From Rhodospirillaceae bacterium (lineage in GTDB: Bacteria > Pseudomonadota > Alphaproteobacteria > MPNO01 > UBA2964), in the NCBI GenBank assembly GCA_002709075.1, contig PAPV01000014.1:479-64478 (forward strand): a stretch of 64,000 nucleotides of DNA. The letters are read 5' to 3'. Position numbers and translations under genes: made by a program. The notes beneath the pieces are model-generated. The model was given only the letters and a program-made list of their open reading frames with translations. It was not told the origin of the DNA and made no database searches. How positions within the stretch are numbered: the first letter of the stretch is position 1; each line of letters begins with the position of its first letter. Below, piece after piece: positions 31,195 to 56,697 of this stretch.

Positions 31195-31232
31195 TGTAAA
31201 ACAGAATTTATATTGTAAAACAGAATTTATAT
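31195..31232. repeat. perfect 19-bp tandem direct repeat x2 (TGTAAAACAGAATTTATAT)
   Basis: 31195-31213 and 31214-31232 are identical; immediately upstream of the RBS of the VOC gene in the divergent VOC/UbiD-2 intergenic region. Confidence 0.9.
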
Positions 31233-32942: not shown

Positions 32943-33016
32943 GTGTTGGAACTAATACGGCCGACAATTTTTTTGTTGATGGCTGTCTAGTTTATACAGG
33001 TTGGTATTTGTAATTA

Positions 33017-38332: not shown

Positions 38333-39553
38333 ATGGATGATGTACGTGTCGACGTCGACGGTCCTCGTGTTAAGAAATGGGCGAGCTTTAATTGGGAAGA
38401 CCCATTTCTGCTAGAAAATCAACTTTCTGAGGAAGAAAAACTGGTTCGTGATTCTGCTAGGGCATACGCAGATGAAAAGCTAATGCCTGGCATACAAAAA
38501 GCCAACCGGAATGAAACCTTCGATCCTAACATAATTAGAGAAATGGGAGCCTTAGGTTTTTTAGGTTCCACCTTGCCAGAAGAATATGGTTGTGCGGGAG
38601 CATCCTATGTAATTTATGGGTTAATTGCGCGAGAAGTTGAAAGGGTAGATAGTGCCTATCGGTCAACTTTGTCGGTGCAATCCAGTTTGGTCATGTGGCC
38701 AATTTATTCTTACGGCACCGAAATGCATAGAAAGAAATATCTTCCAAAGTTAGCTACTGGAGAGCTGATAGGCTGTTTTGGTTTGACCGAGCCGGATCAT
38801 GGATCAGATCCTAGCAGTATGATCACACGAGCGAAAAGTGTTGATGGAGGATTTTTAGTCAGTGGGTCTAAGATGTGGATAAGTAACGCACCAATTGCAG
38901 ATGTTTTTATTATCTGGGCTAAGGACGACGAGGGTGCTATCGGCGGATTTATTCTCGAAAAAGGTATGAAGGGCCTATCAGTGAATAAGGTTGAAGGAAA
39001 ATTTTCTTTACGGGCCTCGCTGACTGGCGAGGTGGTGATGGATGAGGTCTTCGTACCTGATGAAAATCGATTGCCGGGAGCTAATGGTTTAGGAGGCCCT
39101 TTTGGCTGCCTTAATAATGCGCGCTTTGGTATTGCATGGGGCGTGATGGGTGCTGCAGAGTTTTGCTGGCACTCAGCTCGAAATTACACCATGGAGCGCT
39201 CCCAGTTTGGTAGACCATTGGCCTCAAACCAGTTGGTTCAAAAAAAACTGGCTGACATCCAAACTGATATTACAATTGGTTTGCAATCATGTCTTCGCCT
39301 TGGTCGTATGATGGATGATGGAACTTGTTCTCCGGAGACGATTTCTTTGATGAAGCGCCACACTACTGGTAAAGCCCTTGAAATTGCGCGTGTTGCTCGA
39401 GACATGCACGGTGGCAACGGTATAGTTGATGAATACCATATTATTCGTCACGTAATGAATCTTGAGACAGTAATCACCTACGAAGGTACACACGATATAC
39501 ATGCTCTTATACTTGGTAGAGCTCAGACCGGCCTTCAGGCATTTTCTGGATAG
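38333..39553 (+). CDS. gcdH: glutaryl-CoA dehydrogenase
   Basis: 406 aa; [32 protein letters not shown] acyl-CoA dehydrogenase motifs with GCDH-type N-terminus. Confidence 0.8.
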
Positions 39554-39568: not shown

Positions 39569-40792
39569 ATGTTTAGGCCGCTTTCGCATATTCGTGTTTT
39601 AGATATGAGTAGGATTCTTGCTGGACCATGGGCTGCGCAGACACTCGCTGATTTGGGGGCTGAAGTGATAAAAATTGAAAGGCCCGGTCCTGGGGATGAT
39701 ACTCGAAGCTGGGGACCACCGTTCGTAGCGAACAACACTGGTTCATCAAAAGAGTCTGCTTATTTCATGTCTGCTAATCGTGGAAAAAAATCTGTAGCGC
39801 TTGATATTTCGAAGCCACAAGGGCAAAAGATTTTGAAAAGTCTGGTTTCGAAAGCAGATATTCTAATTGAAAATTACAAGGTTGGTGGTCTCTCACGTTA
39901 TGGTTTAGGGTACGAGGACCTCAAAAAAGTGAATCCTGGTTTAATCTACTGTTCAATAACTGGATTTGGTCAGTCCGGTCCTCTTTCCAACCGGGCAGGC
40001 TATGATTTTTTAGTGCAAGCAATGGGTGGGTTAATGAGCGTGACTGGCGAAGCCGATGGGAAGGCCGGCGCCGGACCGCAAAAGATTGGTGTAGCTTTAA
40101 CGGATATTTTGACAGGGCTTTACACAGGAATTGCGGCCTTGTCCGCATTGTCAAATAGAGAAAAATCCAGCGAAGGTTGCCACATTGATATGGCACTTCT
40201 TGATGTCACCGCTGCTTGTATGGCTAATCAAGCAATGAATTTTTTAGTGACTGGAAAATCCCCAGTTCGTATGGGAAATGCACATCCAAATATTGTGCCA
40301 TATGAAGCATTTGCAACTGCTGACCAATATGTAATTATTGCGGTTGGAAATGACGCTCAGTTCAAACGATTTGCTTCTGTGGTTGACATGACGGAATTAT
40401 CTGAAGATCCAAAATTTAAAACAAATTCCGCGCGAGTTGAAAATAGGGATGAATTAATTCCGCTTATTCAAAAATCCTTAAAAAAACGCACTGCAGAAGA
40501 ATGGATTAACGCGTTTGAAGAGGTTGGAGTTCCTTGTGGTCCGATAAATAATATGGAACAGGTATTTGTCAACGAGCAGATGCAACATCGCGGTGTAAAG
40601 ATCGATATGGAGCATAAAACCCTAGGAAAGATACCGCAGGTGGCAAGCCCTATAAAGTTCGCGGGTAAGAACCTTGCTTATGAACGCGCCCCTCCCGCAC
40701 TTGGTCAGGACACGAAGGAGGTTCTTTTCGAAATCGCAGATATTTCCGATGCAGAGATGGCCGATCTTTTTGATAAAAAAATTATTGCCTGA
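39569..40792 (+). CDS. family III (CaiB/BaiF) CoA-transferase
   Basis: IRVLDMSRILAGPWAAQTLADLGAEVIKIE, GDDTRSWGPP, catalytic Asp region GYDFLVQAMGG. Confidence 0.85.
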   Translation: MFRPLSHIRVLDMSRILAGPWAAQTLADLGAEVIKIERPGPGDDTRSWGPPFVANNTGSSKESAYFMSANRGKKSVALDISKPQGQKILKSLVSKADILIENYKVGGLSRYGLGYEDLKKVNPGLIYCSITGFGQSGPLSNRAGYDFLVQAMGGLMSVTGEADGKAGAGPQKIGVALTDILTGLYTGIAALSALSNREKSSEGCHIDMALLDVTAACMANQAMNFLVTGKSPVRMGNAHPNIVPYEAFATADQYVIIAVGNDAQFKRFASVVDMTELSEDPKFKTNSARVENRDELIPLIQKSLKKRTAEEWINAFEEVGVPCGPINNMEQVFVNEQMQHRGVKIDMEHKTLGKIPQVASPIKFAGKNLAYERAPPALGQDTKEVLFEIADISDAEMADLFDKKIIA

Positions 40793-40848: not shown

Positions 40849-41337
40849 TTGGCACTTAAGAAAAAAGTAAATGTTATTAACTGCGAAGATAAGAAGTTGA
40901 GTGACTCCTCCAAAAATTCTAATAAATACATTTTGGAAAAACAAGTGGGACATTTACTTCGTCGTGCCCATCAGCGTCATACTTGGATTTTCCAGAAAAG
41001 AATTGGCGACAGGAGTTTGACACCGGTTCAATTCGCTGCTTTGGTGAAACTCAATGTTTTGGGGGAAGTGTCTCAAAATCAACTTGGCCGAAACACCGCT
41101 ATGGATGCATCGACAATGCAAGGTGTTATTAAACGTCTTGCATCACGTGGGTTAATAGAGAGAAAAGCTGACCCTAACGATCGTCGTAGATTACTTTTGA
41201 GTCTGAGTGAGGAGGGTAAAAAAGTTCTGGAATTGGCAATTCCGTCAGGCCGAATCATAACAAATTCTACTCTCTCGCCTCTTTCTGACGATGAGCAAAA
41301 AACACTTATAGCATTGTTAAAAAAAATCTCATATTAA
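40849..41337 (+). CDS. MarR family transcriptional regulator
   Basis: 162 aa; LTPVQFAALVKL, winged-helix RLASRGLIERKADPNDRR; TTG start (another in-frame TTG lies ~45 nt downstream). Confidence 0.8.
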   Translation: MALKKKVNVINCEDKKLSDSSKNSNKYILEKQVGHLLRRAHQRHTWIFQKRIGDRSLTPVQFAALVKLNVLGEVSQNQLGRNTAMDASTMQGVIKRLASRGLIERKADPNDRRRLLLSLSEEGKKVLELAIPSGRIITNSTLSPLSDDEQKTLIALLKKISY

Positions 41338-41592: not shown

Positions 41593-42618
41593 TTAGATAA
41601 TTGTCCAAGTTCTACCATTGTGCATAAGGTTAGTTACGGTCATTGGGGAAGTTTGTTTTGTTGCTTCCTGAATTTGCAGATGAACAGCTTCTTCATAGGT
41701 TTTGTTCGGATTAGCATATATTACACCCATTGCCACAGGCCATTTCGGCGCTTGCATTTTCGCTAGCATAGAAGCGAGGACGCGATTTGTTCTGTCGTGA
41801 ACTAAAATATCTGTTTTTTTAACACCCTTGGGTCCAATAGTTACTATTTCAAGCTCGAGTTTTTCTTTATTAAGACGAAGTCCCTTTTCAGCGTCCTTTC
41901 CAAAAATAAGTGGTTTTCCGTGTTCGCAGAAAATTTGACCATCACTGCTGTTATTTTTTTCTGTGAAGGAAGAAAACACACCATCATTATAAACAATACA
42001 ATTTTGTAAAATTTCAACTAATGCAGCACCTTTGTGAGCTTTCGCCTCTGCTAATATATTTGGCAGGAGTTTTTGATCGGTATCGACACCACGAGCAACA
42101 AAAGTTGCATTGCAACCCATAGCAAATTGACAAGCAGATACTGGTGAGTCAATAGATCCTGTCGGTGTAGATGGCGATTTGGTGCCAATATCAGAGGTTG
42201 GGGAATATTGTCCTTTAGTTAGGCCGTATATCGAATTGTTGAATAAAAGAATTTGTAGGTCAATATTTCGTCGCAGTGCATGCAAAGTATGGTTGCCGCC
42301 AATAGATAGCATATCTCCGTCTCCACCGATTACCCAGACGTCGAGGTCAGGATTGCTTAATTTCACACCAGTCGCTACCGCAGGTGCTCTTCCGTGGATT
42401 GTATGAAAACCATATGTCTCCATGTAATAAGGAAATCGCGCAGCGCAGCCGATGCCAGAGATAAAGACGGTTTTAGCAGGGTCAGCTCCGTTATCTGAAA
42501 GTGCGCGCTGAACTCCCTTTAGAATGGCATAATCGCCGCAACCTGGACACCAACGAACTTCTTGATCGGAAGCAAAATCATTCGGTTTGAGTTCTTTATG
42601 TGGACTTTCATTTTTCAC
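41593..42618 (-). CDS. korB: 2-oxoglutarate/2-oxoacid:ferredoxin oxidoreductase beta subunit (TPP-binding)
   Basis: WCPGCGDYAIL, GGDGD, IYGLTKGQ motifs; ATGA-type 4-nt overlap with korA. Confidence 0.85.
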   Translation of the reverse strand: MKNESPHKELKPNDFASDQEVRWCPGCGDYAILKGVQRALSDNGADPAKTVFISGIGCAARFPYYMETYGFHTIHGRAPAVATGVKLSNPDLDVWVIGGDGDMLSIGGNHTLHALRRNIDLQILLFNNSIYGLTKGQYSPTSDIGTKSPSTPTGSIDSPVSACQFAMGCNATFVARGVDTDQKLLPNILAEAKAHKGAALVEILQNCIVYNDGVFSSFTEKNNSSDGQIFCEHGKPLIFGKDAEKGLRLNKEKLELEIVTIGPKGVKKTDILVHDRTNRVLASMLAKMQAPKWPVAMGVIYANPNKTYEEAVHLQIQEATKQTSPMTVTNLMHNGRTWTII

Positions 42619-44489
42619 TTTAAATTCTCCAATCGAGTCCTAATTTGGGCTTCAAGATCTGCTACTTTAAAAGGTTTACCATTAATTTGTGTAAATGACT
42701 CTGCTGCGATTAAATATTCAGCTTTTAAAAGTTTTACAAGTTGTCCATTATTTATTTCAGGGACTAGAATTTTTTCAAAATTTGAAAGCAGTTTGAATAT
42801 ATTTTTCGGCATGGGCCATATATGCCGGATATGCAATTGTGATACTTGTAACCCATCAGAACGACAACGGCGAACAGCTTGTTCGATCGCACCAAACGTT
42901 GACCCCCAACCCACAACAAGTAATTTTCCGGACTCCGCACCATTTGCGATTTCTTGATCGGGTATGTCATTGCTTATATTATTGATTTTTGCCGCACGAA
43001 CTTTTGTCATCTTGTGATGATTATCAGCATCGTAAGAAATATTTCCAGAATCATAATCTTTTTCAATTCCGCCTATGCGGTGCTCTAAACCCGGGGTTCC
43101 GGGCACCACCCACGGACGAGCAAGTGTTTGTTCATTACGATTATAAGGCTGAAAATCTGTTTTTTCGGTGTGAAAACTTACCGGAAACTCTTTAATATTC
43201 TCAACGTCTGGAATGCGCCACGGCTCGGCCGCATTCGCAAGATATCCTTCGTTTAAAAACATTACAGGTGTCATGTATTTAGTGGCTAATCGAACCGCCT
43301 CGACTGCGCACTCAAAGCAGTCTGATGGTGTAGATGCAGAAATAACCGGCATTGGTGTATCGCCGTTTCGTCCCCAAACGGCTTGTAGTAGATCAGACTG
43401 CTCCGTCTTGGTAGGCATACCTGTGGATGGCCCTGCTCTTTGAAAATTTATTATAACAAGTGGGAGTTCTGTCGAAACCGCTAGTCCCATAGCTTCCGTC
43501 TTAAGTGCAATACCGGGCCCGGAACTTGATGTAATACCCAAGCATCCGGAGAAGGATGCTCCAATAGCTGCGCAAATCGCAGATATTTCATCCTCTGCCT
43601 GAAATGTAATTACTCCATGTTCGCGCAGATTGCTGAGTGAATGTAAAAGGGGAGAGGCAGGGGTTATAGGGTATGAACCAAAAAATAATTTTAAACCAGT
43701 TTTTTCGGCGCCGGCAAGCAGGCCCCATGTTGTTGTTTCTATTCCTGTTACGGCGCGATAAATTCCAGGTTTTTTTTCTGCTTTTGGAACAATAAAGGTG
43801 GCTAAATCAGCTGAAATTTCAGCCGTTTCTCCATAAGAATGGCCTGCATTTAGAGCTGCTACATTTGCTTTAGCAATATTAGGACGGTCAGAAAAACGCG
43901 ACTCAAGCCATTCTAAAGTAGACTGCCTCTCTCGACCATACATCCAACACATTAAACCTAGTGTCCAGATATTTTTACAGCGAAGAGCATCGCGTTTGCT
44001 AAGGCCGAGGCCTTCCACGGAAGCAAGAGTAAGTTTTGATATATCAATTTTTATAGAACGAAAAAACTCAAGTGTATTATCTTCCAAAGGGTCTGTATCG
44101 TAACCGGCTTTTTTAATATTTCGCGGATTAAATGTACCCGTATTAACAATTACTAATCCGCTTGATGCTAAATCTGAGAGATGCACTTTTAATGCTGCTG
44201 GGTTCATAGCAACCAAAACATCAGGCCTGTCACCTGGGGTTTTAATACTATGCGAGGCAAAGTTTATTTGAAATGCTGAAACACCAAAAGTTGTTCCGAC
44301 CGGGGCACGTATTTCTGCTGGAAAATCCGGAAAAGTTGAAAGGTCATTACCCATCAGTGCTGTTGATTGCGTGAATTGAGTTCCCGTTAACTGCATACCA
44401 TCGCCGGAATCACCCGCAAAACGTATCACTACAGAGTCTAGAATCTCTCTTCCTTTGAAATTCGTGTCCAATTTTGTTGCCATTTTCAT
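42615..44489 (-). CDS. korA: 2-oxoglutarate/2-oxoacid:ferredoxin oxidoreductase alpha subunit (fused gamma-alpha)
   Basis: 624 aa; FAGDSGDGMQLTG, FPAEIRAP N-terminal gamma-type domain then pyruvate:flavodoxin OR core domains. Confidence 0.85.
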   Translation of the reverse strand: MKMATKLDTNFKGREILDSVVIRFAGDSGDGMQLTGTQFTQSTALMGNDLSTFPDFPAEIRAPVGTTFGVSAFQINFASHSIKTPGDRPDVLVAMNPAALKVHLSDLASSGLVIVNTGTFNPRNIKKAGYDTDPLEDNTLEFFRSIKIDISKLTLASVEGLGLSKRDALRCKNIWTLGLMCWMYGRERQSTLEWLESRFSDRPNIAKANVAALNAGHSYGETAEISADLATFIVPKAEKKPGIYRAVTGIETTTWGLLAGAEKTGLKLFFGSYPITPASPLLHSLSNLREHGVITFQAEDEISAICAAIGASFSGCLGITSSSGPGIALKTEAMGLAVSTELPLVIINFQRAGPSTGMPTKTEQSDLLQAVWGRNGDTPMPVISASTPSDCFECAVEAVRLATKYMTPVMFLNEGYLANAAEPWRIPDVENIKEFPVSFHTEKTDFQPYNRNEQTLARPWVVPGTPGLEHRIGGIEKDYDSGNISYDADNHHKMTKVRAAKINNISNDIPDQEIANGAESGKLLVVGWGSTFGAIEQAVRRCRSDGLQVSQLHIRHIWPMPKNIFKLLSNFEKILVPEINNGQLVKLLKAEYLIAAESFTQINGKPFKVADLEAQIRTRLENLK

Positions 44490-44535: not shown

Positions 44536-44558
44536 TTGTTTGTGTACATACAATTATT
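44536..44558 (-). promoter_or_regulatory. 23-bp promoter/operator block upstream of korA (minus-strand reading AATAATTGTATGTACACAAACAA)
   Basis: 22/23 identical to 44670..44692 read on the plus strand; box ends 46 nt upstream of korA ATG; AATAAT is a plausible -10. Confidence 0.6.
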
Positions 44559-44646
44559 CAAATTTCTGATTTTCAATCCAACCTGTCAAGTCTGCTTGGA
44601 ATCAATATTTAAAAAAATGATACATATGTGTTTTTACCTCCTTTGC

Positions 44647-44675
44647 TTGACAGTATTCGCTGCTGATTGAATATT
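44647..44675 (+). promoter_or_regulatory. sigma70-like promoter for the 44739..48320 operon
   Basis: TTGACA (44647-44652), 17-nt spacer, AATATT (44670-44675). Confidence 0.5.
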
Positions 44676-44713
44676 TGTATGTACACAAACAAAAATTATA
44701 TGTACACAAACAA
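44670..44713 (+). promoter_or_regulatory. two direct TGTACACAAACAA boxes (44680-44692, 44701-44713), 21-bp phasing, putative operator
   Basis: Exact 13-mer repeated twice right after the putative -10 and 25 nt upstream of ATG 44739. Confidence 0.6.
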
Positions 44714-44738
44714 ATTGTACCGGGAATTTGGAGGCACC

Positions 44739-46226
44739 ATGGCGCAAATGAGAGAAAATAAAGATGATGGTTTGATACGATGCGATGCTTGTCCAGTGTT
44801 GTGCAGAATTCGTCCTGAAAAGACCGGTGCCTGCAATCGATACGGAAATTTTGAGGGCAAACTTACAAGAGTGGATCCAGTAGTAGTTGTACAAAAAGCG
44901 CTGGATGAAGATTGTGAACTTGTTCCATTTGCGAGAGCATCGGAGGAGTGGGACGGATCTCTGATAAGTCAAGCACCAACATTTTTGACTGGCATTGGAT
45001 CTACTACAACTTATCCTGACTATAAGCCTGCTCCTTTTATTGTGTCGAGCGATCAAGATGGTGTTGATATGGTTACTGTCGTCAGTGAGGGAGTTTTTTC
45101 ATATTGTGGTGTTAAGGTTAAAATCGATACTGATGCTTACATCGGTCCAGAGCCTGCTCCAATTAGAGTAAAAGGCGAGCAGGTTGGTCATGTAACCACC
45201 GCTGAATATGGCAGTCAAATGTTGGCAATTGGCGGTGTACGGCACTTGACCGGAGGAAGTAAAAAAGAAGGTATGGTGACCTGTAACACTATGATGCGAC
45301 TTTGCAATAAAGAACCAGTTGAAATGACTATTGATGGTGGTGCGAATATAATAGTTCAGGGAGGAGAGCCTCCAATTATTAATGGGTTTAAAGAAGAACG
45401 TATGCGGGTAGGGTGTGGCTCAGCAACAGTTGGAATATTTGCACCTCAATGGAAAGACCATGTGGATGAGGTAATAGTCGTAGATGATCATATTACGGCA
45501 GTTTTATCCGAGCATCAGGCGGGACAATTTCTTGATATGCCTCTAGCTGGAATCAGAGTAAGAGGACGTCGTTCTACGCTTGGTCGTTATTTTCAAGTTG
45601 CAGATCATGGGGCAGGTTGGGGAGGAACCGATGTTGAAGATCCATTAGATATAATAGAGAAGATTGATGAAGATATTGCTTGGCCAGGCCTACGATTGTT
45701 GATGGTATCCACAACTGGTCAGGATTCTGCTTGGTATGTTTTAGATGATAATCTCGCACCTCAACCGACTAAAATGCCCCAGGAGGTAAAACTAGTTGTT
45801 GATCGTATTGGTGAAAATTGCGAGCCAGCGTTGTGTACTGTGATGTTCATGGCAGGCGCAGGTGGCTCTTTAAGGGCTGGTGTAACTATTAATCCTGTGC
45901 ACTTAACCCGAAGTGTTCGTGCTTCAGAGACACAAGTAACATGCGGCGGAGCACCTGTATTTGTGTGGCCGGGTGGTGGTATTACTCTTTTGGTGGATGT
46001 GAACCAAATGCCAGATAATTCCTTCGGGTGGGTTCCCACGCCTGCATTAGTTGCTCCCATAGAGTTCACCGTGCGTCGTGATCTTTATGAACGAATTGGA
46101 GGTTATTCTGATAAGGTAAAAAATATTCATGATGTTATTTCTGAACTAGGAAATATTCGATCTGTTCCATGGCGGGAAAATCACCCATGGCCGCCAGAGG
46201 GCATGGCTCGCAAAGATAAGGTGTAA
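44739..46226 (+). CDS. Cys-rich protein of the family commonly auto-annotated as 6-hydroxynicotinate reductase
   Basis: 495 aa from ATG 44739 (GGAGG 4 nt upstream); N-terminal CDACPVLCRIRPEKTGAC cluster motif; family assignment is from memory and unverified. Confidence 0.55.
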   Translation: MAQMRENKDDGLIRCDACPVLCRIRPEKTGACNRYGNFEGKLTRVDPVVVVQKALDEDCELVPFARASEEWDGSLISQAPTFLTGIGSTTTYPDYKPAPFIVSSDQDGVDMVTVVSEGVFSYCGVKVKIDTDAYIGPEPAPIRVKGEQVGHVTTAEYGSQMLAIGGVRHLTGGSKKEGMVTCNTMMRLCNKEPVEMTIDGGANIIVQGGEPPIINGFKEERMRVGCGSATVGIFAPQWKDHVDEVIVVDDHITAVLSEHQAGQFLDMPLAGIRVRGRRSTLGRYFQVADHGAGWGGTDVEDPLDIIEKIDEDIAWPGLRLLMVSTTGQDSAWYVLDDNLAPQPTKMPQEVKLVVDRIGENCEPALCTVMFMAGAGGSLRAGVTINPVHLTRSVRASETQVTCGGAPVFVWPGGGITLLVDVNQMPDNSFGWVPTPALVAPIEFTVRRDLYERIGGYSDKVKNIHDVISELGNIRSVPWRENHPWPPEGMARKDKV

Positions 46227-46231
46227 GAAAA

Positions 46232-47101
46232 ATGTTTGATGGTGCTCAAGTATGCATGCTTCCTGATGGCAAGCGGCTTCATTTGTGCGAAGGACCCATT
46301 GATATCATTCTTGAGGCTTTTGGTCCTCCGAGCGAAATAACTGCAGCCTATAAACGTGCAGAGGTTTGTTTCCTTGATATTCTCTCTACACTAGTTGGTG
46401 AGTTATCTGATTTACGAAAACAGATAGGTGACCCAGAATGCTATCCCGTTGGTCCCGTTGCTAGAAGAATGTTTAACGCTTGTTGGCCTCATCGCAAATG
46501 TTTTGTAACTCCTATGGCAGCTGTAGCAGGTTCTGTGGCAGATGAAGTTTTGACATCATTATCTGCTTCAAAATGTCTTTCAAAAGCATATATCAATAAT
46601 GGGGGTGATATTGCATTTTACTTGGCGAAAGGGGAAAGTTTAACCGCCGGGATTGTAGGTGATTATCATCTTCCCCAGATTAACGCTACGTGTGCTTTTA
46701 CTTCGGATTCGCCTGTCCGTGGGATCGCAACTAGTGGTTGGAAGGGGCGTTCTTTTTCGTTGGGAATCGCGGATACCGTTTCTGTGCTTGCGGAAAATGC
46801 TGCGAAAGCAGATGTGGCAGCTACATTGATAGCTAATGCTGTTGATGTTGATCATCCATCGGTATCTCGTGTTTGTGCTCGTGAATTGGACCCCGATAGT
46901 GATTTAGAGAATCGTGCAGTGACGACAGGGGTAGGAAAACTTGAACCAGAGGTGGTAGAGGAGGCACTTAATCAGGGAGTAAAAACAGCAAAAATTATGC
47001 TTGCATCTGGACTAATTCACGCAGCAGTGTTGATATTAAACAATAAATATAAAATGGTCGGTGATATGCCGGCTGGTTTGTTGGCGGGAGAAAAACAATG
47101 A
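46232..47101 (+). CDS. UPF0280 family protein (ApbE superfamily fold)
   Basis: 289 aa; NNGGDI, GIATSG, ADVAATLIANAV resemble ApbE-fold signatures; 5 nt after upstream stop. Confidence 0.55.
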   Translation: MFDGAQVCMLPDGKRLHLCEGPIDIILEAFGPPSEITAAYKRAEVCFLDILSTLVGELSDLRKQIGDPECYPVGPVARRMFNACWPHRKCFVTPMAAVAGSVADEVLTSLSASKCLSKAYINNGGDIAFYLAKGESLTAGIVGDYHLPQINATCAFTSDSPVRGIATSGWKGRSFSLGIADTVSVLAENAAKADVAATLIANAVDVDHPSVSRVCARELDPDSDLENRAVTTGVGKLEPEVVEEALNQGVKTAKIMLASGLIHAAVLILNNKYKMVGDMPAGLLAGEKQ

Positions 47102-47733
47102 AAAATGTACGGAATATCAAAGATATACAAGTGCCACCTGCTGGTGATTTTGGAGAATTAGTAAAAATTCGCAAATATGTTTTGCATACAGAAGAAGTAC
47201 TACATGAGTTTGGACCGCCCGCTAACCCTCCGCAGTTGCGAGGCTTCATTGCGGCGGTAGCGGCTAATCCTTATGCTGGCGAGTATATTGAAGATCTTAT
47301 ACCTCTGATGGAAGCACTTAAACCATTGGGTTTGCTGATGGCAAAGCGGCTAGCGGACAGTCTTGGTGGAGCGGACAAGATTGTTGCCTATGGAAAATCG
47401 GCGCTGGTAGGTGAAGATGGAGAGCTTGAACATGCAGCACTGTGGCATGAACCAGGAGGCTACGGCATGCGTGAACTGATTAAACCATCAAAAGCCATTG
47501 TGCCATCTACAAAAAAGGTTGCGGGGCCGGGTCGGCCTTTAGATGTCCCTCTTGCTCATGTGAACGCAGCATATGTGCGTAGCCATTTTGATTGTGTAGA
47601 ATGTTGTATCGCTGATGCACCACGTCGTGACGAGGTTGTTTGGGTCCAGGCGATGGCAACTGGTCCTCGAATTTATGATCGGTCTGGTGGTCTATCGGCG
47701 GATGAAATAAAAGGAGAGGATGGATTACGCTAA
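47098..47733 (+). CDS. 'amino acid synthesis' family protein (PF06684/DUF1185), paralog 1
   Basis: 211 aa; YGKSALVGEDGELEHAA, DVPLAHVNAAYVRSHFD, DAPRRDE; ATGA overlap with upstream gene. Confidence 0.7.
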   Translation: MKNVRNIKDIQVPPAGDFGELVKIRKYVLHTEEVLHEFGPPANPPQLRGFIAAVAANPYAGEYIEDLIPLMEALKPLGLLMAKRLADSLGGADKIVAYGKSALVGEDGELEHAALWHEPGGYGMRELIKPSKAIVPSTKKVAGPGRPLDVPLAHVNAAYVRSHFDCVECCIADAPRRDEVVWVQAMATGPRIYDRSGGLSADEIKGEDGLR

Positions 47734-47735
47734 TA

Positions 47736-48320
47736 ATGAGGGTATCTCCTCGTAAAACTCATGTTTCCTGTGAGACCACTTATGTTGATGGAGGGAAAAA
47801 AGCAGAAATTCCCTCACGAAAGGCCGTTGCAATTGCTGTAATTGAAAACCCTTTTGCTAATAAATTTCATAAAAGACTTACTCAACTCGAAAATATTGGT
47901 GAATGGCTTGGGAAATACTTAGGGGAGTTGGCGGTAAATGCAATGAATGCGGCACCAAGTGAAATAGAGAGTTTTGGCAAGGCTGCTATTGTTGGAGAGA
48001 ATGGTGAGTTGGAGCATGCTGCTGCCATTTTGCACCCAAAATTGGGGCAACCTCTCCGTGAGGTGATGGGTGGTGGTCGAGCCCTTGTGCCTTCTGCAAA
48101 AAAATTGGGTGGACCTGGAATTCGTATCGATGTACCACTTGGTCATAAGAACGCAGCCTACGTTCGCAGCCATTTTGACTCAATTGAAGCTGGTTTGCCA
48201 GATGCGCCGCGCGCAAATGAAATTCTCGTGTGCGTAGCAGTGGCGGACTTCGGCAGACCTCATGCCCGGGTTGGCGGATTGAAAAAAGAGGATGTGGTTG
48301 GAAAAGACGGCTTAAAATGA
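47736..48320 (+). CDS. 'amino acid synthesis' family protein (PF06684/DUF1185), paralog 2
   Basis: 194 aa; FGKAAIVGENGELEHAAAILHPKLG, DVPLGHKNAAYVRSHFD, DAPRANE; 2 nt after upstream stop. Confidence 0.75.
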   Translation: MRVSPRKTHVSCETTYVDGGKKAEIPSRKAVAIAVIENPFANKFHKRLTQLENIGEWLGKYLGELAVNAMNAAPSEIESFGKAAIVGENGELEHAAAILHPKLGQPLREVMGGGRALVPSAKKLGGPGIRIDVPLGHKNAAYVRSHFDSIEAGLPDAPRANEILVCVAVADFGRPHARVGGLKKEDVVGKDGLK

Positions 48321-48954: not shown

Positions 48955-51291
48955 TTAGTTTTTTGCAGCTTGGATGGCTTCCCAGACGCGAGCTGGAGTA
49001 GCGGGTGCGTCAAGCTTTGTAACACCAACAGGGGCCAGTGCGTGCAGTATAGCGCACATTGATGCTGCCATAGATCCACCATTTCCCGCTTCCCCACAAC
49101 CTTTTACTCCTAAAGGGTTGGTGGTAGAGGGTACGTTGCGAGTTGAAAACGCTATATTGCAAAGATCATCGGCTCGAGGCATGCAGTAGTCCATGTAAGA
49201 CCCAGTAACAAGTTGTCCATTTTCATCATAGACAGTATTCTCAAGCAAAACTTGCCCAATACCTTGCATTATTCCTCCTTGTACTTGGCCCTCGACAACC
49301 AGAGGGTTAATTACTAACCCGAAGTCATCTACAACAGTATACCGGACAATTTCTGTAACTCCGGTTTCGGGATCAATTTCTACCTCACATATGTGACAAC
49401 CATTTGGGAATGATGAAGGACTGGTATCGTGAACTGCTTTGTCGTCTAGTGTGTCTGGAACATCTTTTGGCAAATTAATTTCAGATTGTAATCTTTTTGA
49501 TAGCTCTATTATACCGATTGATCGATCTGTTCCGGCTACAATAAAGTCACCTGCGGCAAATTCAATATCCTCTGCTGCAGCCTCAAGAAAATGTGCGGCA
49601 GCAATTTTTCCTTTTTCTGCAATCTTTGTGGCGCAGTCATTAATGGCATTTCCTGCCCCCAAAAGTGTTTTGGAGCCCCCAGATCCGCTGGCGCCCTTAC
49701 TCATAAGTTCTGAGTCATTTTGGATAACACGTATTTTTTCATATGGAACGCCCAGTTTGTCAGACAAAATCTGCGCAAAGGGGGTGCGATGACTTGTTCC
49801 CATGTCTTTTGCTCCAGTAATCAGTGCTACCGTGCCATCATCATGAAATCGAACATCACAAAGCTCTCCAGCGGCGCCCGTGTTTTCAAGATAAGGGGTT
49901 AGAGCAATACCGCATAATTTTCCACGTTGAGCAGCTTTTGCTCTTCGCTCTTCAAAACCAGCCCAATCCGCTTGTTTTAAACATTCATCCATCAACGCTT
50001 CAAATTCACCAGAATCATACTCTTGCCCGTTAGGAGTTTTCCAAGGGAATGACCCAGCTGGGATTAGATTTTTTCTTCGGATTTCAACCCTATCAAAGCC
50101 CATTTCGCTGGCTGCTTTATCAATTAGTTGCTCCAAAATATATTTGGATTCTGGACGCCCTGCACCGCGGTATGGTCCCGTAGGAACCGTGTTTGAAAAC
50201 ACGGCTTTTGTTCCGTAGGCAAAAGCGGGCGTTTTATACACACTGACCAAATTTCGGGAGATTACACCAGTGACTGGACCAGGACCCATAGCGGTTGAAT
50301 AAGCCCCCAAATTCCCAACACCCCCGCATCTGAGCGCCAAAAAATTTCCATCTTTATCCAAAGCCAATTCTGCACTTATAAGACTGTCACGACCCTGTTG
50401 GTCTGAGAGAAAACTCTCGGTCCTACTGGCTGTCCATTTTACTGTTCGGTTCAGCTTCCGGGAAGCATACATAACAGCGATAGGCTCTGCTAGACACGCA
50501 CCTTTCATGCCAAAAGAACCGCCCACATCATTGGAAAGAATACGAATTTTTTCATCTTTCATTTTGAAAATTGCTTTAGCTAACTGCGATCTCATTCCAA
50601 CGACACCTTGCGTTGGCAGAGTTACAGTGAATTTGTCCAAGTGCGAGTCGTATTCGGCTATAACAGCTCGTGGTTCCATTGCATTTACCACCATACGGGT
50701 AGATAAAACACGAATACTGCTTACATGGTCGGCTTCCTCAAATGCCTGGTCGCAGGCTTTCTGATCTCCAGTAAAATAGTCAAGGCAAATGTTATTTTCT
50801 GCTTCGTCCCATAGTTGAACAGCACCATCTTGAAGCGCATCCCACGCCTCAACAGTTACTTTTTCTGGCAGAATATCTACTGCTACTAATTCAGCTGCTT
50901 CTTCTGCAAGCGCTGCAGTTTCTGCAATAACAACTGCTATTATTTCACCAACGTGTCGAACCCGACCTTCAGCCATCCCACAACGAGGAGGTACAAAGTA
51001 GGGGGATCCGTCCCGATTTTTGATTGGCATGTTTGATGGAATGTCTCCCACGCTATCGGCTCGCAAATCCTCCGCAGTATAAATTGCCAACACACCAGGC
51101 ATTTCCAAAGCTGTACATATCTTTATTGATTTAATTATCCCGTGGGCAACCTGACTGCGAACAAAACGCGCATAGAGTTGCCCGTCCGCGGAATAATCAT
51201 CCGTGTATTCCCCGCCACCAGTCAGAAGTCGAGGATCCTCTGATCGATAAACAGGTTGCCCAATACCAAAATTTAGCGGTATCCTACTCAT
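48955..51291 (-). CDS. xanthine dehydrogenase/aldehyde oxidase family molybdopterin-binding large subunit (CoxL-like, non-CO-dehydrogenase type)
   Basis: 778 aa; GQPVYRSEDPRLLTG N-terminus, GSFGMKG, GPYRGAGRPE active-site loop; 8-nt overlap with hyuB. Confidence 0.85.
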   Translation of the reverse strand: MSRIPLNFGIGQPVYRSEDPRLLTGGGEYTDDYSADGQLYARFVRSQVAHGIIKSIKICTALEMPGVLAIYTAEDLRADSVGDIPSNMPIKNRDGSPYFVPPRCGMAEGRVRHVGEIIAVVIAETAALAEEAAELVAVDILPEKVTVEAWDALQDGAVQLWDEAENNICLDYFTGDQKACDQAFEEADHVSSIRVLSTRMVVNAMEPRAVIAEYDSHLDKFTVTLPTQGVVGMRSQLAKAIFKMKDEKIRILSNDVGGSFGMKGACLAEPIAVMYASRKLNRTVKWTASRTESFLSDQQGRDSLISAELALDKDGNFLALRCGGVGNLGAYSTAMGPGPVTGVISRNLVSVYKTPAFAYGTKAVFSNTVPTGPYRGAGRPESKYILEQLIDKAASEMGFDRVEIRRKNLIPAGSFPWKTPNGQEYDSGEFEALMDECLKQADWAGFEERRAKAAQRGKLCGIALTPYLENTGAAGELCDVRFHDDGTVALITGAKDMGTSHRTPFAQILSDKLGVPYEKIRVIQNDSELMSKGASGSGGSKTLLGAGNAINDCATKIAEKGKIAAAHFLEAAAEDIEFAAGDFIVAGTDRSIGIIELSKRLQSEINLPKDVPDTLDDKAVHDTSPSSFPNGCHICEVEIDPETGVTEIVRYTVVDDFGLVINPLVVEGQVQGGIMQGIGQVLLENTVYDENGQLVTGSYMDYCMPRADDLCNIAFSTRNVPSTTNPLGVKGCGEAGNGGSMAASMCAILHALAPVGVTKLDAPATPARVWEAIQAAKN

Positions 51292-53041
51292 CCCGGGGTT
51301 TCTCCAAATTTTCTATCAAGATTTTGCGTTTTTTATTAGTTTTAACTATATTTGCTTTGCCGCTTTTATCTATACAGACGCCAAAAAGTTCTTCTGCTTG
51401 CAGTTCCGTGTAGTAACCCCGTTTCACATCACTTTGTACCAGACTTATATCTCGTTCGCATGGATTACCATAGCCACCACCACCAGGAGTTGAAACTCTA
51501 ACAGTATCATTCTGATTTACCTCGATATCTTGGTCTTTTGATAGATGTGGCGGTATGTAATCTACACCATTTTGGCTGATCACAACCCTGTTAACGCCGC
51601 CATTCGCTCCACCAAGTACCCCTAACGGTCCTGTTCGCCCATGATCCATAACCATCGAAGCTCTTGCCTCACCTCTCTGGAGTCTAATTTTGTAGTTTAC
51701 TCCAAATCCTCCTCGATATTTTCCGGCTCCTCCGGACCCTTCATGAAGTGAAAATTCTTCAAAAATAACTGGGTAATATTGTTCCATAACCTCTATGGGA
51801 GTTGTTTTTGATATTCCAATTGTTGAGCAACCATTCGAGATACCATCCCCAAAATTACTTCCACCATAACCACCACCAGATATGACATACATTACGTAGG
51901 GTCGATCTTTTTCTGGATCAACACCACCAAGACAGAAATTCCCACTTGTACCTGCAGGCGCGGCAAAAAGTTTGTTGGGTATAGCTTCCACTAATGCTAC
52001 GAATACGGCCTCTGCGATGCGTTGACTAACTTCTGCAGCACAACCAGAAACTGGACGTGGATATTCTGCATATAGAAAAGTTCCCTTTGGATCATGAATA
52101 TGAAGTGGGTCAAATGTGCCTGCATTTATTGGTACATCAGGAAAAATGTGTTTCATAGCCAAATATATTGAAGATCTCGTGGTAGCAATCACAGAATTCA
52201 TTGGTCCAAGGCAAGGTGGACTGGAGTCCGACATATCAAAATATAATTCAGTTCCCTCGCAACGAATCTTCATTTTAATTTCCAGAGGTTTGTCCACTAC
52301 ACCATCGGAGTCAACAAATGCACTTCCATTGTATTCACCATCAGGGATATCATTAATGCATGCTCTCATTTGCTGTGCTGCCCGTTCGCGCAGTTCCTCA
52401 ATTGCTTGTTTAACTGTTTGTACGCCGTACCGTTCCAGCAATACCTCGAAGCGTTTTTCTCCAACAGTCAGAGCTGCAGCCTGTGCCTTTATATCTCCTA
52501 TACGTTGATCAGCGATCCTTATGTTTGAAAGCACTATTGAGAGTATTTCTTTATCTATAACGCCCTCTTTATATAGTTTAACTGGCGGCAACCTCAATCC
52601 TTCCTGCTCGACCTCAGTCGCACTTGCAGAAAAACCACCAGGTACAGATCCACCTGTGTCTGGCCAATGACCAGTGTTGGCCAACCATGCGAAAAGTTCT
52701 CCCTGATAAAAAAATGGTTTTACGAAGCGTACATCCATTAGATGTGTTCCGCCCAGATATGGGTCATTTACAATATAAACATCACCAGCTTTAGCATTTT
52801 TCGCTCTTTCGATTACACATTTAGTGCCAAACTGCATTGTTCCTACAAACACCGGCAAACCTAATTCCCCTTGGGAAATTAAATCTCCGTTTTCTGGATG
52901 ATAAATGCCATCTGACCTATCCAAAGCCTCTGAAATTACTGGACTAAATGCAGACCTTACAAACGCGAGATCCATCTCATTGCAAACCTGCTGAAGACCC
53001 GATTGAATAACGGCTAATGTAACGGGGTCTAGCGAACTCAT
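51284..53041 (-). CDS. hyuB: hydantoinase B/oxoprolinase family protein
   Basis: 585 aa; DPVTLAVIQSGL, NDPYLGGTHLMD, GGGYG motifs. Confidence 0.8.
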   Translation of the reverse strand: MSSLDPVTLAVIQSGLQQVCNEMDLAFVRSAFSPVISEALDRSDGIYHPENGDLISQGELGLPVFVGTMQFGTKCVIERAKNAKAGDVYIVNDPYLGGTHLMDVRFVKPFFYQGELFAWLANTGHWPDTGGSVPGGFSASATEVEQEGLRLPPVKLYKEGVIDKEILSIVLSNIRIADQRIGDIKAQAAALTVGEKRFEVLLERYGVQTVKQAIEELRERAAQQMRACINDIPDGEYNGSAFVDSDGVVDKPLEIKMKIRCEGTELYFDMSDSSPPCLGPMNSVIATTRSSIYLAMKHIFPDVPINAGTFDPLHIHDPKGTFLYAEYPRPVSGCAAEVSQRIAEAVFVALVEAIPNKLFAAPAGTSGNFCLGGVDPEKDRPYVMYVISGGGYGGSNFGDGISNGCSTIGISKTTPIEVMEQYYPVIFEEFSLHEGSGGAGKYRGGFGVNYKIRLQRGEARASMVMDHGRTGPLGVLGGANGGVNRVVISQNGVDYIPPHLSKDQDIEVNQNDTVRVSTPGGGGYGNPCERDISLVQSDVKRGYYTELQAEELFGVCIDKSGKANIVKTNKKRKILIENLEKPRDE

Positions 53042-55083
53042 TTGGTAATCTCCGTATCAATATTCATTATAATATTGCCAAAAATATCAGTGTACATATT
53101 ATCTTTGGGTTCCATAATTACGGTTGTATCGCTTTGTTCAAGGATAGCAGGGCCTTGCAAAGTTGTTTCTAGTGGCATTGCCTCTCTATTGTAAATAGGT
53201 GTTTCTGTGCGGCCACCTTCAAACCAAACCAGGCGGGCCCCGGTTTGCGCTTTTTCAATTCTGTTTGTTCGCATTTTAATATCCATGAGATTAGAAAGTT
53301 CGACCTGTTTGCGCTTTCCAATTACCGCAGTGTGCAAATTTACAACGACCGGTCGGATCTCATCGAGTTCAACGGCAAATCTGTTCCAATATGCTGATGC
53401 AAAAGCATCATGGAGTTTCCGCTTCGTAATGTTTTTATTTACGGAAACGGTAAGAATATGTGTTTGTCCTTGAAATTGCATATCGATATCGTGAAAAATA
53501 ATGATATCTTCCACCTCTATACCTTCTGCATTAATCGTCTCTTGGCCACGCGTTTCTTGTTCTGTGAAAATCGCTGAAATTTCTTCCATGTTTGCTTCGA
53601 CCAAAGATTTATTAATCGTATTAACGTAGTCATGTCGAACATCGGCCACTACACAACCCACTGCATTTGTAATGCCTGGTCTTGCCGGAACTAGAACTTT
53701 TGGAATACCCAGTTCACGAGCGAGTGCGGCTGCGTGCAGAGGACCAGCTCCACCAAAGGGAAATAAAGCAAAGTCTCTTGGATCATGTCCTCTAGCAAGG
53801 GAGACAATTCTGAGAGCACCGGCCATTTTTGTATTGGCAATTTGTATTATCGCAGCAGCCGCTTCCTCAGGAGAATTTAAACCCAGAGGTTCACTGATTT
53901 TTTTTGTAAATATATCAATTATTTTATCAAGTCCAATATCAGAATTTGCCATAATTTCTGGATTTAGCCGTCCCAGTAGCATATTCGCATCTGTTATCGT
54001 CGGCTGCACACCACCGCGGCCATAACAAATAGGTCCTGGCACTGCACCGGCACTCTCTGGGCCCACTTCCAACAGGCCAGCAGGGGTTATAGCCGCGATT
54101 GACCCGCCACCAGCACCAATTGTTCGCACATCGACCATAGGAACGTGAATGGGCATCGCATACTCGATTTCTAATTCTGAGGAAACTTGGGGTATGCCGT
54201 TTTTGATAAGCGCCACATCACAACTTGTTCCACCCATATCACAGGTAATAACATTATCATATCCAGCGCTTTTTGCTGTGTAGGCGGCGGCCATCACGCC
54301 TGAGGCTGGTCCAGACATAACGGTGTTAACAGCGGTTTCGGAAATTAATTTGGATGATACCGTACCACCATTGCCCTGCATTACTAGCAAATCATGGACA
54401 TAGCCTCGGTCTTTTAGTTCATTCCTAAGCTTCTTTATATAATTGTCCAAAACCGGTTGGATCGCTGCATTTATCATCGCCGTAGTTCCACGTTCATATT
54501 CGCGAAATTCAGACATTACAGCGCTTCCACGAGTAATAAAGTCGTTCGGCCAAATCTCTCTCACAACCTGTTCTGCATGTTTTTCATTAGTATCATTGAC
54601 ATATGAATGAAGAAAGTGAATCACGATGGAGTCAACTCCCATATCGAGCAATCTTTGTGCTGCTTTTCGGACATCATTCTCATCCAAGGCTGTTATGATT
54701 TGCCCGTTTGCGCCAATTCGTTCTGACGCCTCCAAACGCCTTTCTCGCGGTATCAAGCATTCAAAACTGCCTGTGAGTCCGTATGGGTTCGGTCTTGTTC
54801 GACGACCAAGTTCAAGCGAGTCCCGAAAACCTAGGGTTGTTATGAGTCCACATTTTGCGATTTTTCGTTCTAAAAGGGCATTAGTAGTAACCGTTGTTCC
54901 ATGCACTATGGTGTGAATAGAAGCTGGTTGAACACCTCCTTCAGTTATTGCTGACAGAACTCCAAATGCCTGATTTTCCGGAGTTGAAGGCACTTTAGCA
55001 ATTTTTACTGTGCCCGTCTCGTCATCTAGAATTATTAAATCGGTAAAAGTACCACCTACATCCACTCCTACAATTCGGCTCAT
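53038..55083 (-). CDS. hyuA: hydantoinase A/oxoprolinase family protein (ATP-binding, ASKHA fold)
   Basis: 681 aa; GVDVGGTFTD, DMGGTSCD, GAGGGSIA motifs; 4-nt overlap with hyuB. Confidence 0.8.
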   Translation of the reverse strand: MSRIVGVDVGGTFTDLIILDDETGTVKIAKVPSTPENQAFGVLSAITEGGVQPASIHTIVHGTTVTTNALLERKIAKCGLITTLGFRDSLELGRRTRPNPYGLTGSFECLIPRERRLEASERIGANGQIITALDENDVRKAAQRLLDMGVDSIVIHFLHSYVNDTNEKHAEQVVREIWPNDFITRGSAVMSEFREYERGTTAMINAAIQPVLDNYIKKLRNELKDRGYVHDLLVMQGNGGTVSSKLISETAVNTVMSGPASGVMAAAYTAKSAGYDNVITCDMGGTSCDVALIKNGIPQVSSELEIEYAMPIHVPMVDVRTIGAGGGSIAAITPAGLLEVGPESAGAVPGPICYGRGGVQPTITDANMLLGRLNPEIMANSDIGLDKIIDIFTKKISEPLGLNSPEEAAAAIIQIANTKMAGALRIVSLARGHDPRDFALFPFGGAGPLHAAALARELGIPKVLVPARPGITNAVGCVVADVRHDYVNTINKSLVEANMEEISAIFTEQETRGQETINAEGIEVEDIIIFHDIDMQFQGQTHILTVSVNKNITKRKLHDAFASAYWNRFAVELDEIRPVVVNLHTAVIGKRKQVELSNLMDIKMRTNRIEKAQTGARLVWFEGGRTETPIYNREAMPLETTLQGPAILEQSDTTVIMEPKDNMYTDIFGNIIMNIDTEITK

Positions 55084-56654: not shown

Positions 56655-56697
56655 AAAATAGCTCCCAAAATTTTTACAAACAAGTATTAATCAACGT

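Follow-up and report, generated by a model that had tools for sequence, protein, structure and literature searches.

A module of four genes in a Rhodospirillaceae bacterium (assembly GCA_002709075.1, contig PAPV01000014.1) is likely to serve the reductive degradation of nicotinate or 6-hydroxynicotinate, and is centred on a homologue of 6-hydroxynicotinate reductase (Hnr). The analysis covered a stretch of 64,000 nucleotides (nt) of this contig, referred to here as the window, and all coordinates refer to it. The module lies on the forward strand and encodes the Hnr homologue, which is of the short proteobacterial form (protein 1, P1; 44739–46226, 495 amino acids [aa]), a remotely ApbE-like protein of the UPF0280 family (P2; 46232–47101, 289 aa), and two paralogs of the DUF1185/AA_synth family, one of the ‘D3’ type (P3; 47098–47733, 211 aa) and one of the ‘D4’ type (P4; 47736–48320, 194 aa). 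Hnr (EC 1.3.7.1) catalyzes the ferredoxin-dependent reduction of 6-hydroxynicotinate to 6-oxo-1,4,5,6-tetrahydronicotinate. Nicotinate catabolism has a branch via 6-oxo-tetrahydronicotinate (THON), of which the four genes probably form the reductive core. P1 would accept low-potential electrons through a cluster held by four N-terminal cysteines and use them to convert the pyridone ring of its substrate, 6-hydroxynicotinate or a very close analogue, to the tetrahydro lactam. The specific roles proposed below for the individual accessory proteins are much more tentative and range from doubtful to possible.

A first-pass annotation, made from the nucleotide sequence alone, had described four co-directional and tightly packed open reading frames (ORFs), and its coordinates and junctions agree with ours: a 5-nt gap between the genes for P1 and P2, a 4-nt ATGA overlap between those for P2 and P3, and a 2-nt gap between those for P3 and P4. 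The ribosome-binding site GGAGG (44729–44733, + strand), which ends 5 bases before the ATG of P1, and a sigma-70-type promoter, TTGACA-17-AATATT (44647–44675, + strand), are likewise present where it placed them. The promoter is also conserved upstream of the operon in four relatives (L005–L008) among the loci fetched for comparison, and the TTGACA/AATATT pair is kept in five of six aligned upstream regions, where the mean column identity is only 57%. Promoter-like hexamer pairs around the operon do not occur above chance (10 seen and 10.8 expected from shuffled sequence).

By homology, P1 belongs to a biochemically characterised family, the one usually annotated as 6-hydroxynicotinate reductase, to which the first-pass annotation had also assigned it. 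Its description of the module as an undescribed system with ‘no defined biochemistry’ does not apply to P1: the Hnr purified from Eubacterium barkeri shares 42% identity with a homologue from Bradyrhizobiaceae, and the surrounding cluster holds two conserved proteins of unassigned function (PMC3511419). The family and the cluster are thus in the literature, the gene order since 2006 and 2012, and the window carries a known catabolic system in slightly altered genomic surroundings. Databases list over 8000 homologues of P1, and NCBI names many of these 6-hydroxynicotinate reductase. P1 matched no Pfam or NCBIfam family and has no sequence relative in the PDB. Homology to characterised enzymes was found for P1 and not for P2–P4, and DUF1185 has one reported effect (see below). 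The loci of Sporomusa, Moorella, and Desulfosporosinus served as proxies for E. barkeri, with Sporomusa aerivorans Hnr used in the direct comparison; P1 is 40% identical to it across residues 15–466 (E 3e-119). The neighbours of S. aerivorans Hnr include FAD, [2Fe-2S], and Mo subunits, an enamidase, a 3-hydroxyisobutyrate-type dehydrogenase, an aconitase-family protein, a B12-binding mutase, PrpF, and MutL, which is the gene set of the E. barkeri fermentation.

Clustering of the Hnr family at 50% identity resolved two groups: a tight proteobacterial clade that includes P1 (mean column identity of 79% in 12 members) and a tier of anaerobe proteins (~510 aa, 37–47% identity). P1 is 62–86% identical to the Hnr of 80 fetched, mostly proteobacterial, loci. 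In the anaerobe proteins, an additional 2x[4Fe-4S] ferredoxin domain at the N-terminus precedes the CxxCxxxCx9C motif that had been pointed out in P1 (CDACPVLCRIRPEKTGAC). The motif comprises C15, C18, C22, and C32, which together with C226 are the only cysteines invariant across both clades (60 aligned sequences), and S228 of P1 is nearly invariant (at least 90% of the 60 sequences). A Pfam scan found the N-terminal 2x[4Fe-4S] domain missing from P1, which begins 14 residues ahead of the CxxC, while Fer4 matches were present in 43 of the 60 aligned members, all of the anaerobe type. Because the whole proteobacterial clade is without this domain, its absence marks a subtype rather than exclusion from Hnr. 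In addition to a covalent flavin, the E. barkeri enzyme reportedly contains two [4Fe-4S] clusters and one [2Fe-2S] cluster. The arrangement of domains agrees with this: the Fer4 domain would correspond to the two [4Fe-4S] clusters and the four-cysteine motif to the [2Fe-2S] cluster, such that P1 would retain only the latter.

An AlphaFold prediction of P1 from 12 close homologues was useless (pLDDT 41), and one from 60 sequences of both clades reached a pLDDT of 83.5 and a pTM of 0.81. Foldseek searches with the latter model matched no PDB structure at E ≤ 1e-3. The one resemblance that it did give, at a probability of 0.44, was to the small barrel at the C-terminus of the glycine-cleavage T-protein, and weak Pfam matches to the GcvT C-terminal barrel were found in 35 of the 60 members at P1 residues 123–159 (best E 4e-4); this likeness extends to a sub-domain only. 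By these searches, the catalytic region of Hnr has neither a relative among solved structures nor a recognisable flavin-binding fold.

Two anaerobe homologues of ~970–980 aa (P0126 and P0133) have an extra region of ~450–500 aa, which in one of them is inserted in the middle of Hnr and which, judged from the sequence by eye, is GltD-type NAD(P)H/FAD-like. If real, this region implies versions of Hnr that are driven directly by pyridine nucleotide. The divergent Hnr-like protein P0134, on a JGI metagenome contig (L175), has CGGAIL where others have CGSA(T/S). Its neighbours are not nicotinate genes but those for a sulfite/nitrite-reductase-like protein and DUF1185, and hence it may represent a paralog that acts on a different substrate. 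Among the cluster representatives, the apparent fusions of Hnr to UPF0280 or DUF1185 were short, fragmentary, chimeric gene calls and were not counted.

The association of Hnr with UPF0280 and DUF1185 is conserved far beyond the window. Approximately 250 loci were fetched overall, including 80 from Proteobacteria, 80 from Desulfobacterota, and about ten from Bacillota, and were annotated with the window proteins and a Desulfobacterota reference set; loci with at least 6 kb on both sides (47 proteobacterial and 49 Desulfobacterota) are referred to as full. UPF0280 directly follows Hnr in ~76 of the 83 loci of the proteobacterial set, where six of the seven exceptions are contigs that end just past hnr. 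It also does so in 46 of the 49 full loci from Desulfobacterota and in all 11 from Bacillota. DUF1185 comes next in 40 of those 49 Desulfobacterota loci, in every one of the 11 from Bacillota, and in around two-thirds of the proteobacterial loci. The linkage is therefore strong in all three phyla in which the first-pass annotation's suggestion of a neighbourhood survey was followed up, and this co-occurrence puts the module inside a known pathway. On the other side of the balance stand the few loci without UPF0280 beside Hnr and the approximately one third of proteobacterial loci without DUF1185. In one scan, matches occurred in at least 600 species genomes, spanning Proteobacteria, Desulfobacterota, and Bacillota and including marine plankton. 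The closest relatives of the window module are found in marine alphaproteobacterial metagenome-assembled genomes and Tara Oceans contigs, and the cultured Sagittula stellata E-37 has the same four-gene string, as identified by PGAP names. Sulfitobacter likewise has all four genes.

Other genes recur with the module as well. A Mo-hydroxylase large-subunit gene lies directly upstream of Hnr in about 70 of the 83 loci of the proteobacterial set, and a MarR gene recurs near Hnr in many loci. An enamidase is encoded in 12 proteobacterial full loci and in 47 of 49 Desulfobacterota loci, in which the operon order is Aldedh-Ndh-enamidase-Hnr-UPF0280-DUF1185. Compared with E. barkeri Hnr and the clusters of Azorhizobium caulinodans, Bradyrhizobium, and Rhodopseudomonas (Alhapel 2006; PMC3511419), the window shares homology over the full catalytic region, the CxxCxxxCx9C motif, C226, and the downstream UPF0280 and DUF1185 genes. 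It also has a MarR regulator and a candidate glutarate-type lower pathway, which the Azorhizobium route would lead one to expect. Unlike the E. barkeri-type enzyme, the window Hnr is without the N-terminal 2x[4Fe-4S] domain, as are all proteobacterial forms. Moreover, the clade to which the window belongs differs from the known nicotinate clusters in having no hnr-adjacent nicotinate dehydrogenase or enamidase and in having a co-regulated oxidoreductase and hydantoinase A/B genes.

In the plasmid collection, P1 was found in 26 records and P2 in 27, which is roughly 1:1, and the extra P2 record is a remnant truncated by IS1071. In this plasmid (L258, Hydrogenophaga sp. BPS33), UPF0280 without hnr directly follows an IS1071 transposase. 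The unit is repeated together with Rieske oxygenase and PDR/VanB genes, with tblastn matches at four places, and it looks like a composite-transposon amplification of a captured cluster fragment.

P2 was assigned to UPF0280 by its match to NCBIfam NF003322 (355.5 bits, cut-off 290, residues 4–281), in agreement with the first-pass annotation, and its precomputed Pfam family is PF27030 (AbpE_bact). The motifs NNGGDI, GIATSG, and ADVAAT, in which that annotation had seen a likeness to ApbE, are present and contain the residues invariant among 30 orthologues (G125-D126, G164/A166-G169, and A193-D194/T198). In an hhalign comparison with Escherichia coli Ftp, they align with VGGAL, GISTSG, and EADAWDT. 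P2 therefore shares GGD, TSG, and ADxxxT with ApbE/Ftp (PF02424), which we take to be nucleotide/Mg-binding motifs in those proteins, and its gene adjoins that of a protein said to carry covalent flavin. P2 is probably cytoplasmic because no obvious signal peptide was seen by eye. Given the ~1:1 pairing with Hnr, the reportedly covalent flavin of Hnr, and the absence of a canonical flavin fold in Hnr, a cofactor-maturation role is the most economical: P2 would serve Hnr alone, acting in the cytoplasm to insert the covalent flavin or another cofactor into it. A maturation factor is the most likely role of P2, and a stoichiometric subunit of Hnr is less likely.

Several observations weigh against P2 being a flavin transferase of the ApbE type. 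P2 has no match to Pfam ApbE (PF02424) at E ≤ 0.01, the profile of 30 P2 orthologues found no canonical ApbE structure in the PDB, and hhalign assigned a probability of only 18% to the comparison with E. coli Ftp. The same alignment indicates that the HxIDPxTG segment (~20 residues, LSHVIDPQTG in E. coli Ftp), the His of which is presumably catalytic in ApbE/Ftp, is deleted in P2. Hnr also differs from ApbE/Ftp targets in being without the conserved Dxx(S/T)GA(T/S) motif. A flavinylation site of Hnr tracking UPF0280 was sought at T230, in the ApbE-like target motif GCGSAT, and is not supported, as this position is Ala or Val in 20 UPF0280-bearing loci.

P2 could instead be a sulfur or Fe-S delivery factor for Hnr that does not handle flavin, in the manner of its COG2122 relatives, on which homocysteine synthesis in Desulfovibrio and methanogens depends genetically, as it does on DUF39 and a NIL/ferredoxin protein. 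These COG2122/UPF0280 proteins of the DUF39 pathway (PDB 2o34; Desulfovibrio DvMF_0044; Methanosarcina MA1715) belong to the same superfamily as P2 and are likewise accessory factors paired with a ferredoxin-domain redox protein. The COG2122-type hypothetical protein 2o34 is the sole solved relative of P2 and the only PDB match of its profile (E 2.4e-13), and the deleted catalytic-His segment of ApbE also agrees with a delivery factor. However, P2 matches the COG2122-type NCBIfam models with just 60–69 bits, compared with 355 bits to its own subfamily, its partner is Hnr rather than DUF39, and the Hnr reaction has no known sulfur chemistry. In addition, GGD, TSG, and ADxxxT are invariant and aligned with E. 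coli Ftp, and the Sporomusa UPF0280 orthologue is barely over the Pfam ApbE threshold (26.0 vs 25.6 bits). A sulfur or Fe-S delivery role is improbable on this evidence, and maturation of the Hnr cofactor is preferred.

P3 and P4 are DUF1185 paralogs, as had been proposed: both match PF06684 (215.8 bits, E 3.9e-64 and 218.1 bits, E 7.6e-65, respectively; cut-off 27, profile positions 1–175), and they are 40% identical to each other. P3 also matches PDB 3byq (E 2e-49), of which the conserved E-x-E-H/H/R cluster is kept in P3 and P4 as GELEH, H117, and R161. Ten charged or histidine residues (K100, E109, E111, H112, H117, R125, R161, D173, R191, and R195 in P3 numbering) do not vary among the DUF1185 members of the nicotinate type, the trigonelline type, and Rhodococcus. 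These residues coincide in part with the conserved His/Glu/Arg cluster described in the dimer-interface cavity of DUF1185, which assembles from dimers into a hexamer (JCSG structure paper). The P4 type is the closest to the single copy of Desulfobacterota and Bacillota clusters, and P4 matches a single Desulfobacterota copy with 242 bits compared with 160 bits for P3. A D4 copy is present in 12 of 12 enamidase-containing proteobacterial loci, and the D3 type follows UPF0280 in Proteobacteria, with or without enamidase, and occurs with either ring-opening enzyme.

The first-pass annotation had combined the four proteins into one undescribed multi-subunit Fe-S reductase, possibly containing flavin, with the DUF1185 paralogs as a heteromeric subunit. 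The translational coupling of the four genes, the Hnr-UPF0280-DUF1185 order kept in three phyla, and the construction of DUF1185 hexamers from dimers, which makes mixed dimers physically possible, are all consistent with such a complex. The distribution of the paralogs argues otherwise. Among the 47 full proteobacterial loci, both DUF1185 types are present in 15, one type in 16, and none in 16, and clusters of Desulfobacterota and Bacillota nearly always have one DUF1185 copy, of the D4 type where classified. As both types occur together in only 15 loci and each type stands alone in most genomes, an obligate P3/P4 heteromer is not supported. DUF1185 was also found in 387 plasmid records, compared with 26–27 for Hnr and UPF0280, and these include trigonelline-type clusters with neither Hnr nor UPF0280. 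Given also that the system is already described (PMC3511419), a single complex of all four proteins is very unlikely.

In Sinorhizobium and Rhizobium, DUF1185 occurs in the string GntR – DUF1185 – alpha/beta hydrolase – flavin reductase – LLM oxygenase – aldehyde dehydrogenase, which presumably represents the trigonelline (tgn) gene set. The copies in this string are 35–36% identical to P3 and P4 and are orthologue-like relatives of TgnF rather than Acinetobacter baylyi TgnF itself. TgnF, encoded in the A. baylyi trigonelline cluster, is in the same Pfam family as P3 and P4, and the invariant charged and His residues are shared with trigonelline-type members. Like the genes for P3 and P4, its gene adjoins that of the enzyme that releases an aminomethylene/formyl dicarboxylate once a pyridine ring has been opened, and a gene for an aldehyde dehydrogenase is usually close by. 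TgnF is described as stimulating the TgnE aldehyde dehydrogenase reaction (Perchat 2018 as cited in PMC7913881), and this stimulation is its only reported effect. Trigonelline differs in that its ring is opened oxidatively by a two-component flavin oxygenase.

In both pathways, the opened ring yields a 2-(aminomethylene)dicarboxylate, and loss of the amine yields a 2-formyl dicarboxylate, so a role of DUF1185 at this point fits both. P3 and P4 may be hexameric accessory enzymes at the ring-opening stage that speed the conversion of 2-(aminomethylene)glutarate to 2-formylglutarate and ammonium through enamine/imine hydrolysis or tautomerisation, and TgnF may perform the analogous step in trigonelline breakdown. 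By this analogy, an enamine/imine hydrolase or tautomerase would be the most likely function of DUF1185, and it fits the link to ring opening, the merely stimulatory effect of TgnF, and the patchy presence of the gene. A point against this function is that the E. barkeri enamidase reportedly releases ammonia on its own, and any role of DUF1185 would for that reason be accessory.

Alternatively, DUF1185 could be the missing 2-formylglutarate decarboxylase of the Azorhizobium-type pathway, which would supply the aldehyde dehydrogenase with glutarate semialdehyde. In the Desulfobacterota operon, every step except decarboxylation has a gene, and the trigonelline route requires conversion of 2-formylsuccinate to succinate semialdehyde, the next dehydrogenase being the one that TgnF stimulates in the account cited above. 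This reading was initially favoured and was demoted because fermentative Bacillota clusters all keep DUF1185: 11 of 11 carry it, and the Sporomusa cluster, which was scanned in full, encodes the E. barkeri fermentative route, in which 2-formylglutarate is reduced by the neighbouring 3-hydroxyisobutyrate-type dehydrogenase without decarboxylation. A decarboxylase consequently has a low probability, and the deaminating or tautomerising role of DUF1185 is preferred. A literature search on UPF0280, DUF1185, THON, enamidase, and TgnF found no paper that gives either accessory family a reaction in nicotinate catabolism.

Divergently from the module, the window encodes a 2-oxoacid:acceptor (ferredoxin) oxidoreductase. 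Its alpha subunit (42615–44489, − strand) matches TIGR03710 with 633.5 bits (cut-off 482.75), and its beta subunit (41593–42618, − strand) contains Pfam TPP_enzyme_C and is just below the cut-off of TIGR02177 (255.2 bits vs 261.9). A MarR-family regulator (40849–41337, + strand; Pfam MarR) is a candidate repressor. The spacer between hnr and the oxidoreductase genes contains three copies of an imperfectly palindromic, operator-like motif of 18–26 nt, TTGTATGTACACAAACAA. Two copies in tandem (44667–44713, + strand), which appear as direct repeat D1 and inverted repeats I1/I2, extend over the −10 element and transcription start of hnr, and a third, inverted copy (44536–44561; 26-nt arms, 96% complementary to 44667–44692) adjoins the promoter of the oxidoreductase genes. 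L005–L008 have the first copy unchanged in a spacer that is otherwise poorly conserved, and the inverted copy is conserved in relatives and followed by an invariant TGTCAAG (reverse complement CTTGACA). The motif is probably a MarR operator. Since it is common to both promoters, hnr and the oxidoreductase genes are probably co-repressed by the neighbouring MarR protein.

The oxidoreductase may supply low-potential electrons to Hnr in this clade. We infer this source of electrons because P1 is without the built-in 2x[4Fe-4S] domain of the anaerobe enzymes. The divergent oxidoreductase genes are kept in L001, L002, and L005–L011, and L003 keeps the alpha subunit. In L012, the oxidoreductase pair is also upstream, with a Mo-hydroxylase large-subunit gene between the pair and Hnr. 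Sagittula has a ferredoxin-NADP reductase gene at the equivalent position, which, together with the shared operator, suggests that lineages attach different low-potential electron suppliers to the Hnr that is without the ferredoxin domain. On the other hand, no small ferredoxin gene was found in the 64-kb window, which weighs against this electron route.

Ring opening in the window probably relies on hydantoinase/oxoprolinase subunits rather than an enamidase. HydA (53038–55083, − strand; Pfam Hydantoinase_A) and HydB (51284–53041, − strand; Pfam Hydantoinase_B) are encoded together with a molybdenum hydroxylase large subunit of 778 aa (48955–51291, − strand; Pfam MoCoBD_1 and MoCoBD_2), the gene of which overlaps the end of hydB by 8 nt. 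HydA/B has the full domain set of the ATP-dependent lactam hydrolases caprolactamase, 5-oxoprolinase, and N-methylhydantoinase. Its best NCBIfam match is caprolactamase (527 and 338 bits), far under the equivalog cut-offs of 1000, and by analogy its candidate substrate would be the cyclic enamide THON. HydA/B and enamidase are mutually exclusive among the 47 full proteobacterial loci (22 and 12 loci, respectively, and none with both). ATP-dependent HydA/B may thus open the ring in place of the enamidase, and the carbon skeleton may proceed through glutarate to glutaryl-CoA by way of a neighbouring family III CoA-transferase (39569–40792, + strand; candidate succinyl-CoA:glutarate CoA-transferase) and acyl-CoA dehydrogenase (38333–39553, + strand; candidate glutaryl-CoA dehydrogenase). 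These two genes are kept beside the module in L007–L009 and L011, and the Azorhizobium nicotinate route reportedly runs via glutarate.

Some observations count against assignment of the window to the nicotinate pathway. No enamidase was found in the 64-kb window, nor was a canonical Hnr-adjacent nicotinate dehydrogenase, which bears on the physiological substrate. The lower-pathway enzymes are under the NCBIfam cut-offs, although succinate-glutarate CoA-transferase (SucGlutTfsCaiB, 511 bits, cut-off 750) and glutaryl-CoA dehydrogenase (GlutCoADH, 226 bits, cut-off 470) are their best matches. The Mo large subunit of the window matches the Hnr-adjacent Mo subunit of L088 with 210 bits, compared with ~580–1340 bits (median 625) for the listed orthologues, and hence it and the nicotinate dehydrogenase encoded next to Hnr elsewhere are not orthologous. 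A [2Fe-2S] or FAD subunit to partner it was found nowhere in the 64 kb.

P1 of the marine clade could accordingly reduce a different hydroxylated N-heterocyclic carboxylate, made by the distinct Mo hydroxylase and processed by the hydantoinase pair. The missing dehydrogenase and enamidase, the placement of the non-orthologous Mo large subunit in one operon with HydA/B, and the three UbiD-type decarboxylases, two isochorismatase-family amidases, and Amidohydro_2 protein of the island would all suit another substrate. Yet the close identity of P1 to the Hnr of the 80 loci, ~70 of which have the Mo large-subunit gene directly upstream, and the average conservation of 79% in the alignment columns favour a common substrate. 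The UPF0280 and DUF1185 partners are also unchanged, genes for a candidate glutarate-type lower pathway lie nearby, and L012 combines the oxidoreductase with a Mo large-subunit gene directly upstream of Hnr. A different substrate is unlikely in view of these features, and 6-hydroxynicotinate or a very close analogue is preferred.

Other genes of the island were noted in passing. Three UbiD-family (prenylated-flavin-type, prFMN) decarboxylase paralogs (521, 497, and 495 aa) are encoded at 26594–34504 with an AMP-binding ligase and a short-chain dehydrogenase, which suggests a separate module of the same island for decarboxylation of aromatic or heteroaromatic acids; no UbiX-like gene was noticed alongside them in the window. 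Upstream of the acyl-CoA dehydrogenase gene, at 37585–38233, a Rieske/NirD-like protein (121 aa, CxH...CPWH) overlaps an ORF of 107 aa that has no Pfam family and is conserved in L007 and L008. A tandem pair of genes of the isochorismatase family (242 and 233 aa) is located at 55926–57399 on the − strand. This family includes nicotinamidase and maleamate amidohydrolase, and copies occur near hnr in L009, L010, L062, and L079; for these reasons, the pair might feed nicotinamide into the pathway. A TctA-family transporter of 717 aa is encoded at 58793–60946, with the TctA domain confined to residues 29–459, and its hydrophobic C-terminal extension may be a fused TctB-like part. The island also holds the Amidohydro_2 protein mentioned above. 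The left end of the window (1–13000) consists of housekeeping genes, named from their Pfam domains (folK, rpoZ, spoT/relA, pdxJ, lepB, rnc, era, recO, and a gyrA/parC-type topoisomerase subunit A), and the GC content is uniform across the window (~0.38–0.45). The ordinary housekeeping genes at this end indicate that the catabolic island is chromosomal.

Taken together, the proposals would make Hnr the founder of a structurally new class of Fe-S flavoenzymes without a canonical flavin fold, UPF0280 an ApbE-derived cytoplasmic maturase with a non-classical mechanism, and DUF1185 an aminomethylene-dicarboxylate deaminase or tautomerase common to the nicotinate and trigonelline routes. They would also have ring reduction in an aerobic marine bacterium proceed via a co-regulated 2-oxoacid:ferredoxin oxidoreductase and ring opening via an ATP-dependent hydantoinase-type lactamase. 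That all of these hold jointly is rather doubtful.

Nicotinate and nicotinamide are ubiquitous vitamins and nitrogen sources, and the reductive branch of their breakdown is widespread. The textbook upper pathway consists of three enzymes, to which genomes consistently add the UPF0280 and DUF1185 families. Assigning reactions to these two families would complete the classical pathway, providing the first biochemical function for UPF0280 and a defined reaction for DUF1185. The function of UPF0280 might, in turn, explain the COG2122 relatives in the homocysteine synthesis of archaea and sulfate reducers. The variant in the window, coupled to an oxidoreductase and containing a hydantoinase, illustrates how an ‘anaerobic’ ferredoxin-dependent reaction may be wired into the metabolism of an aerobic marine heterotroph.

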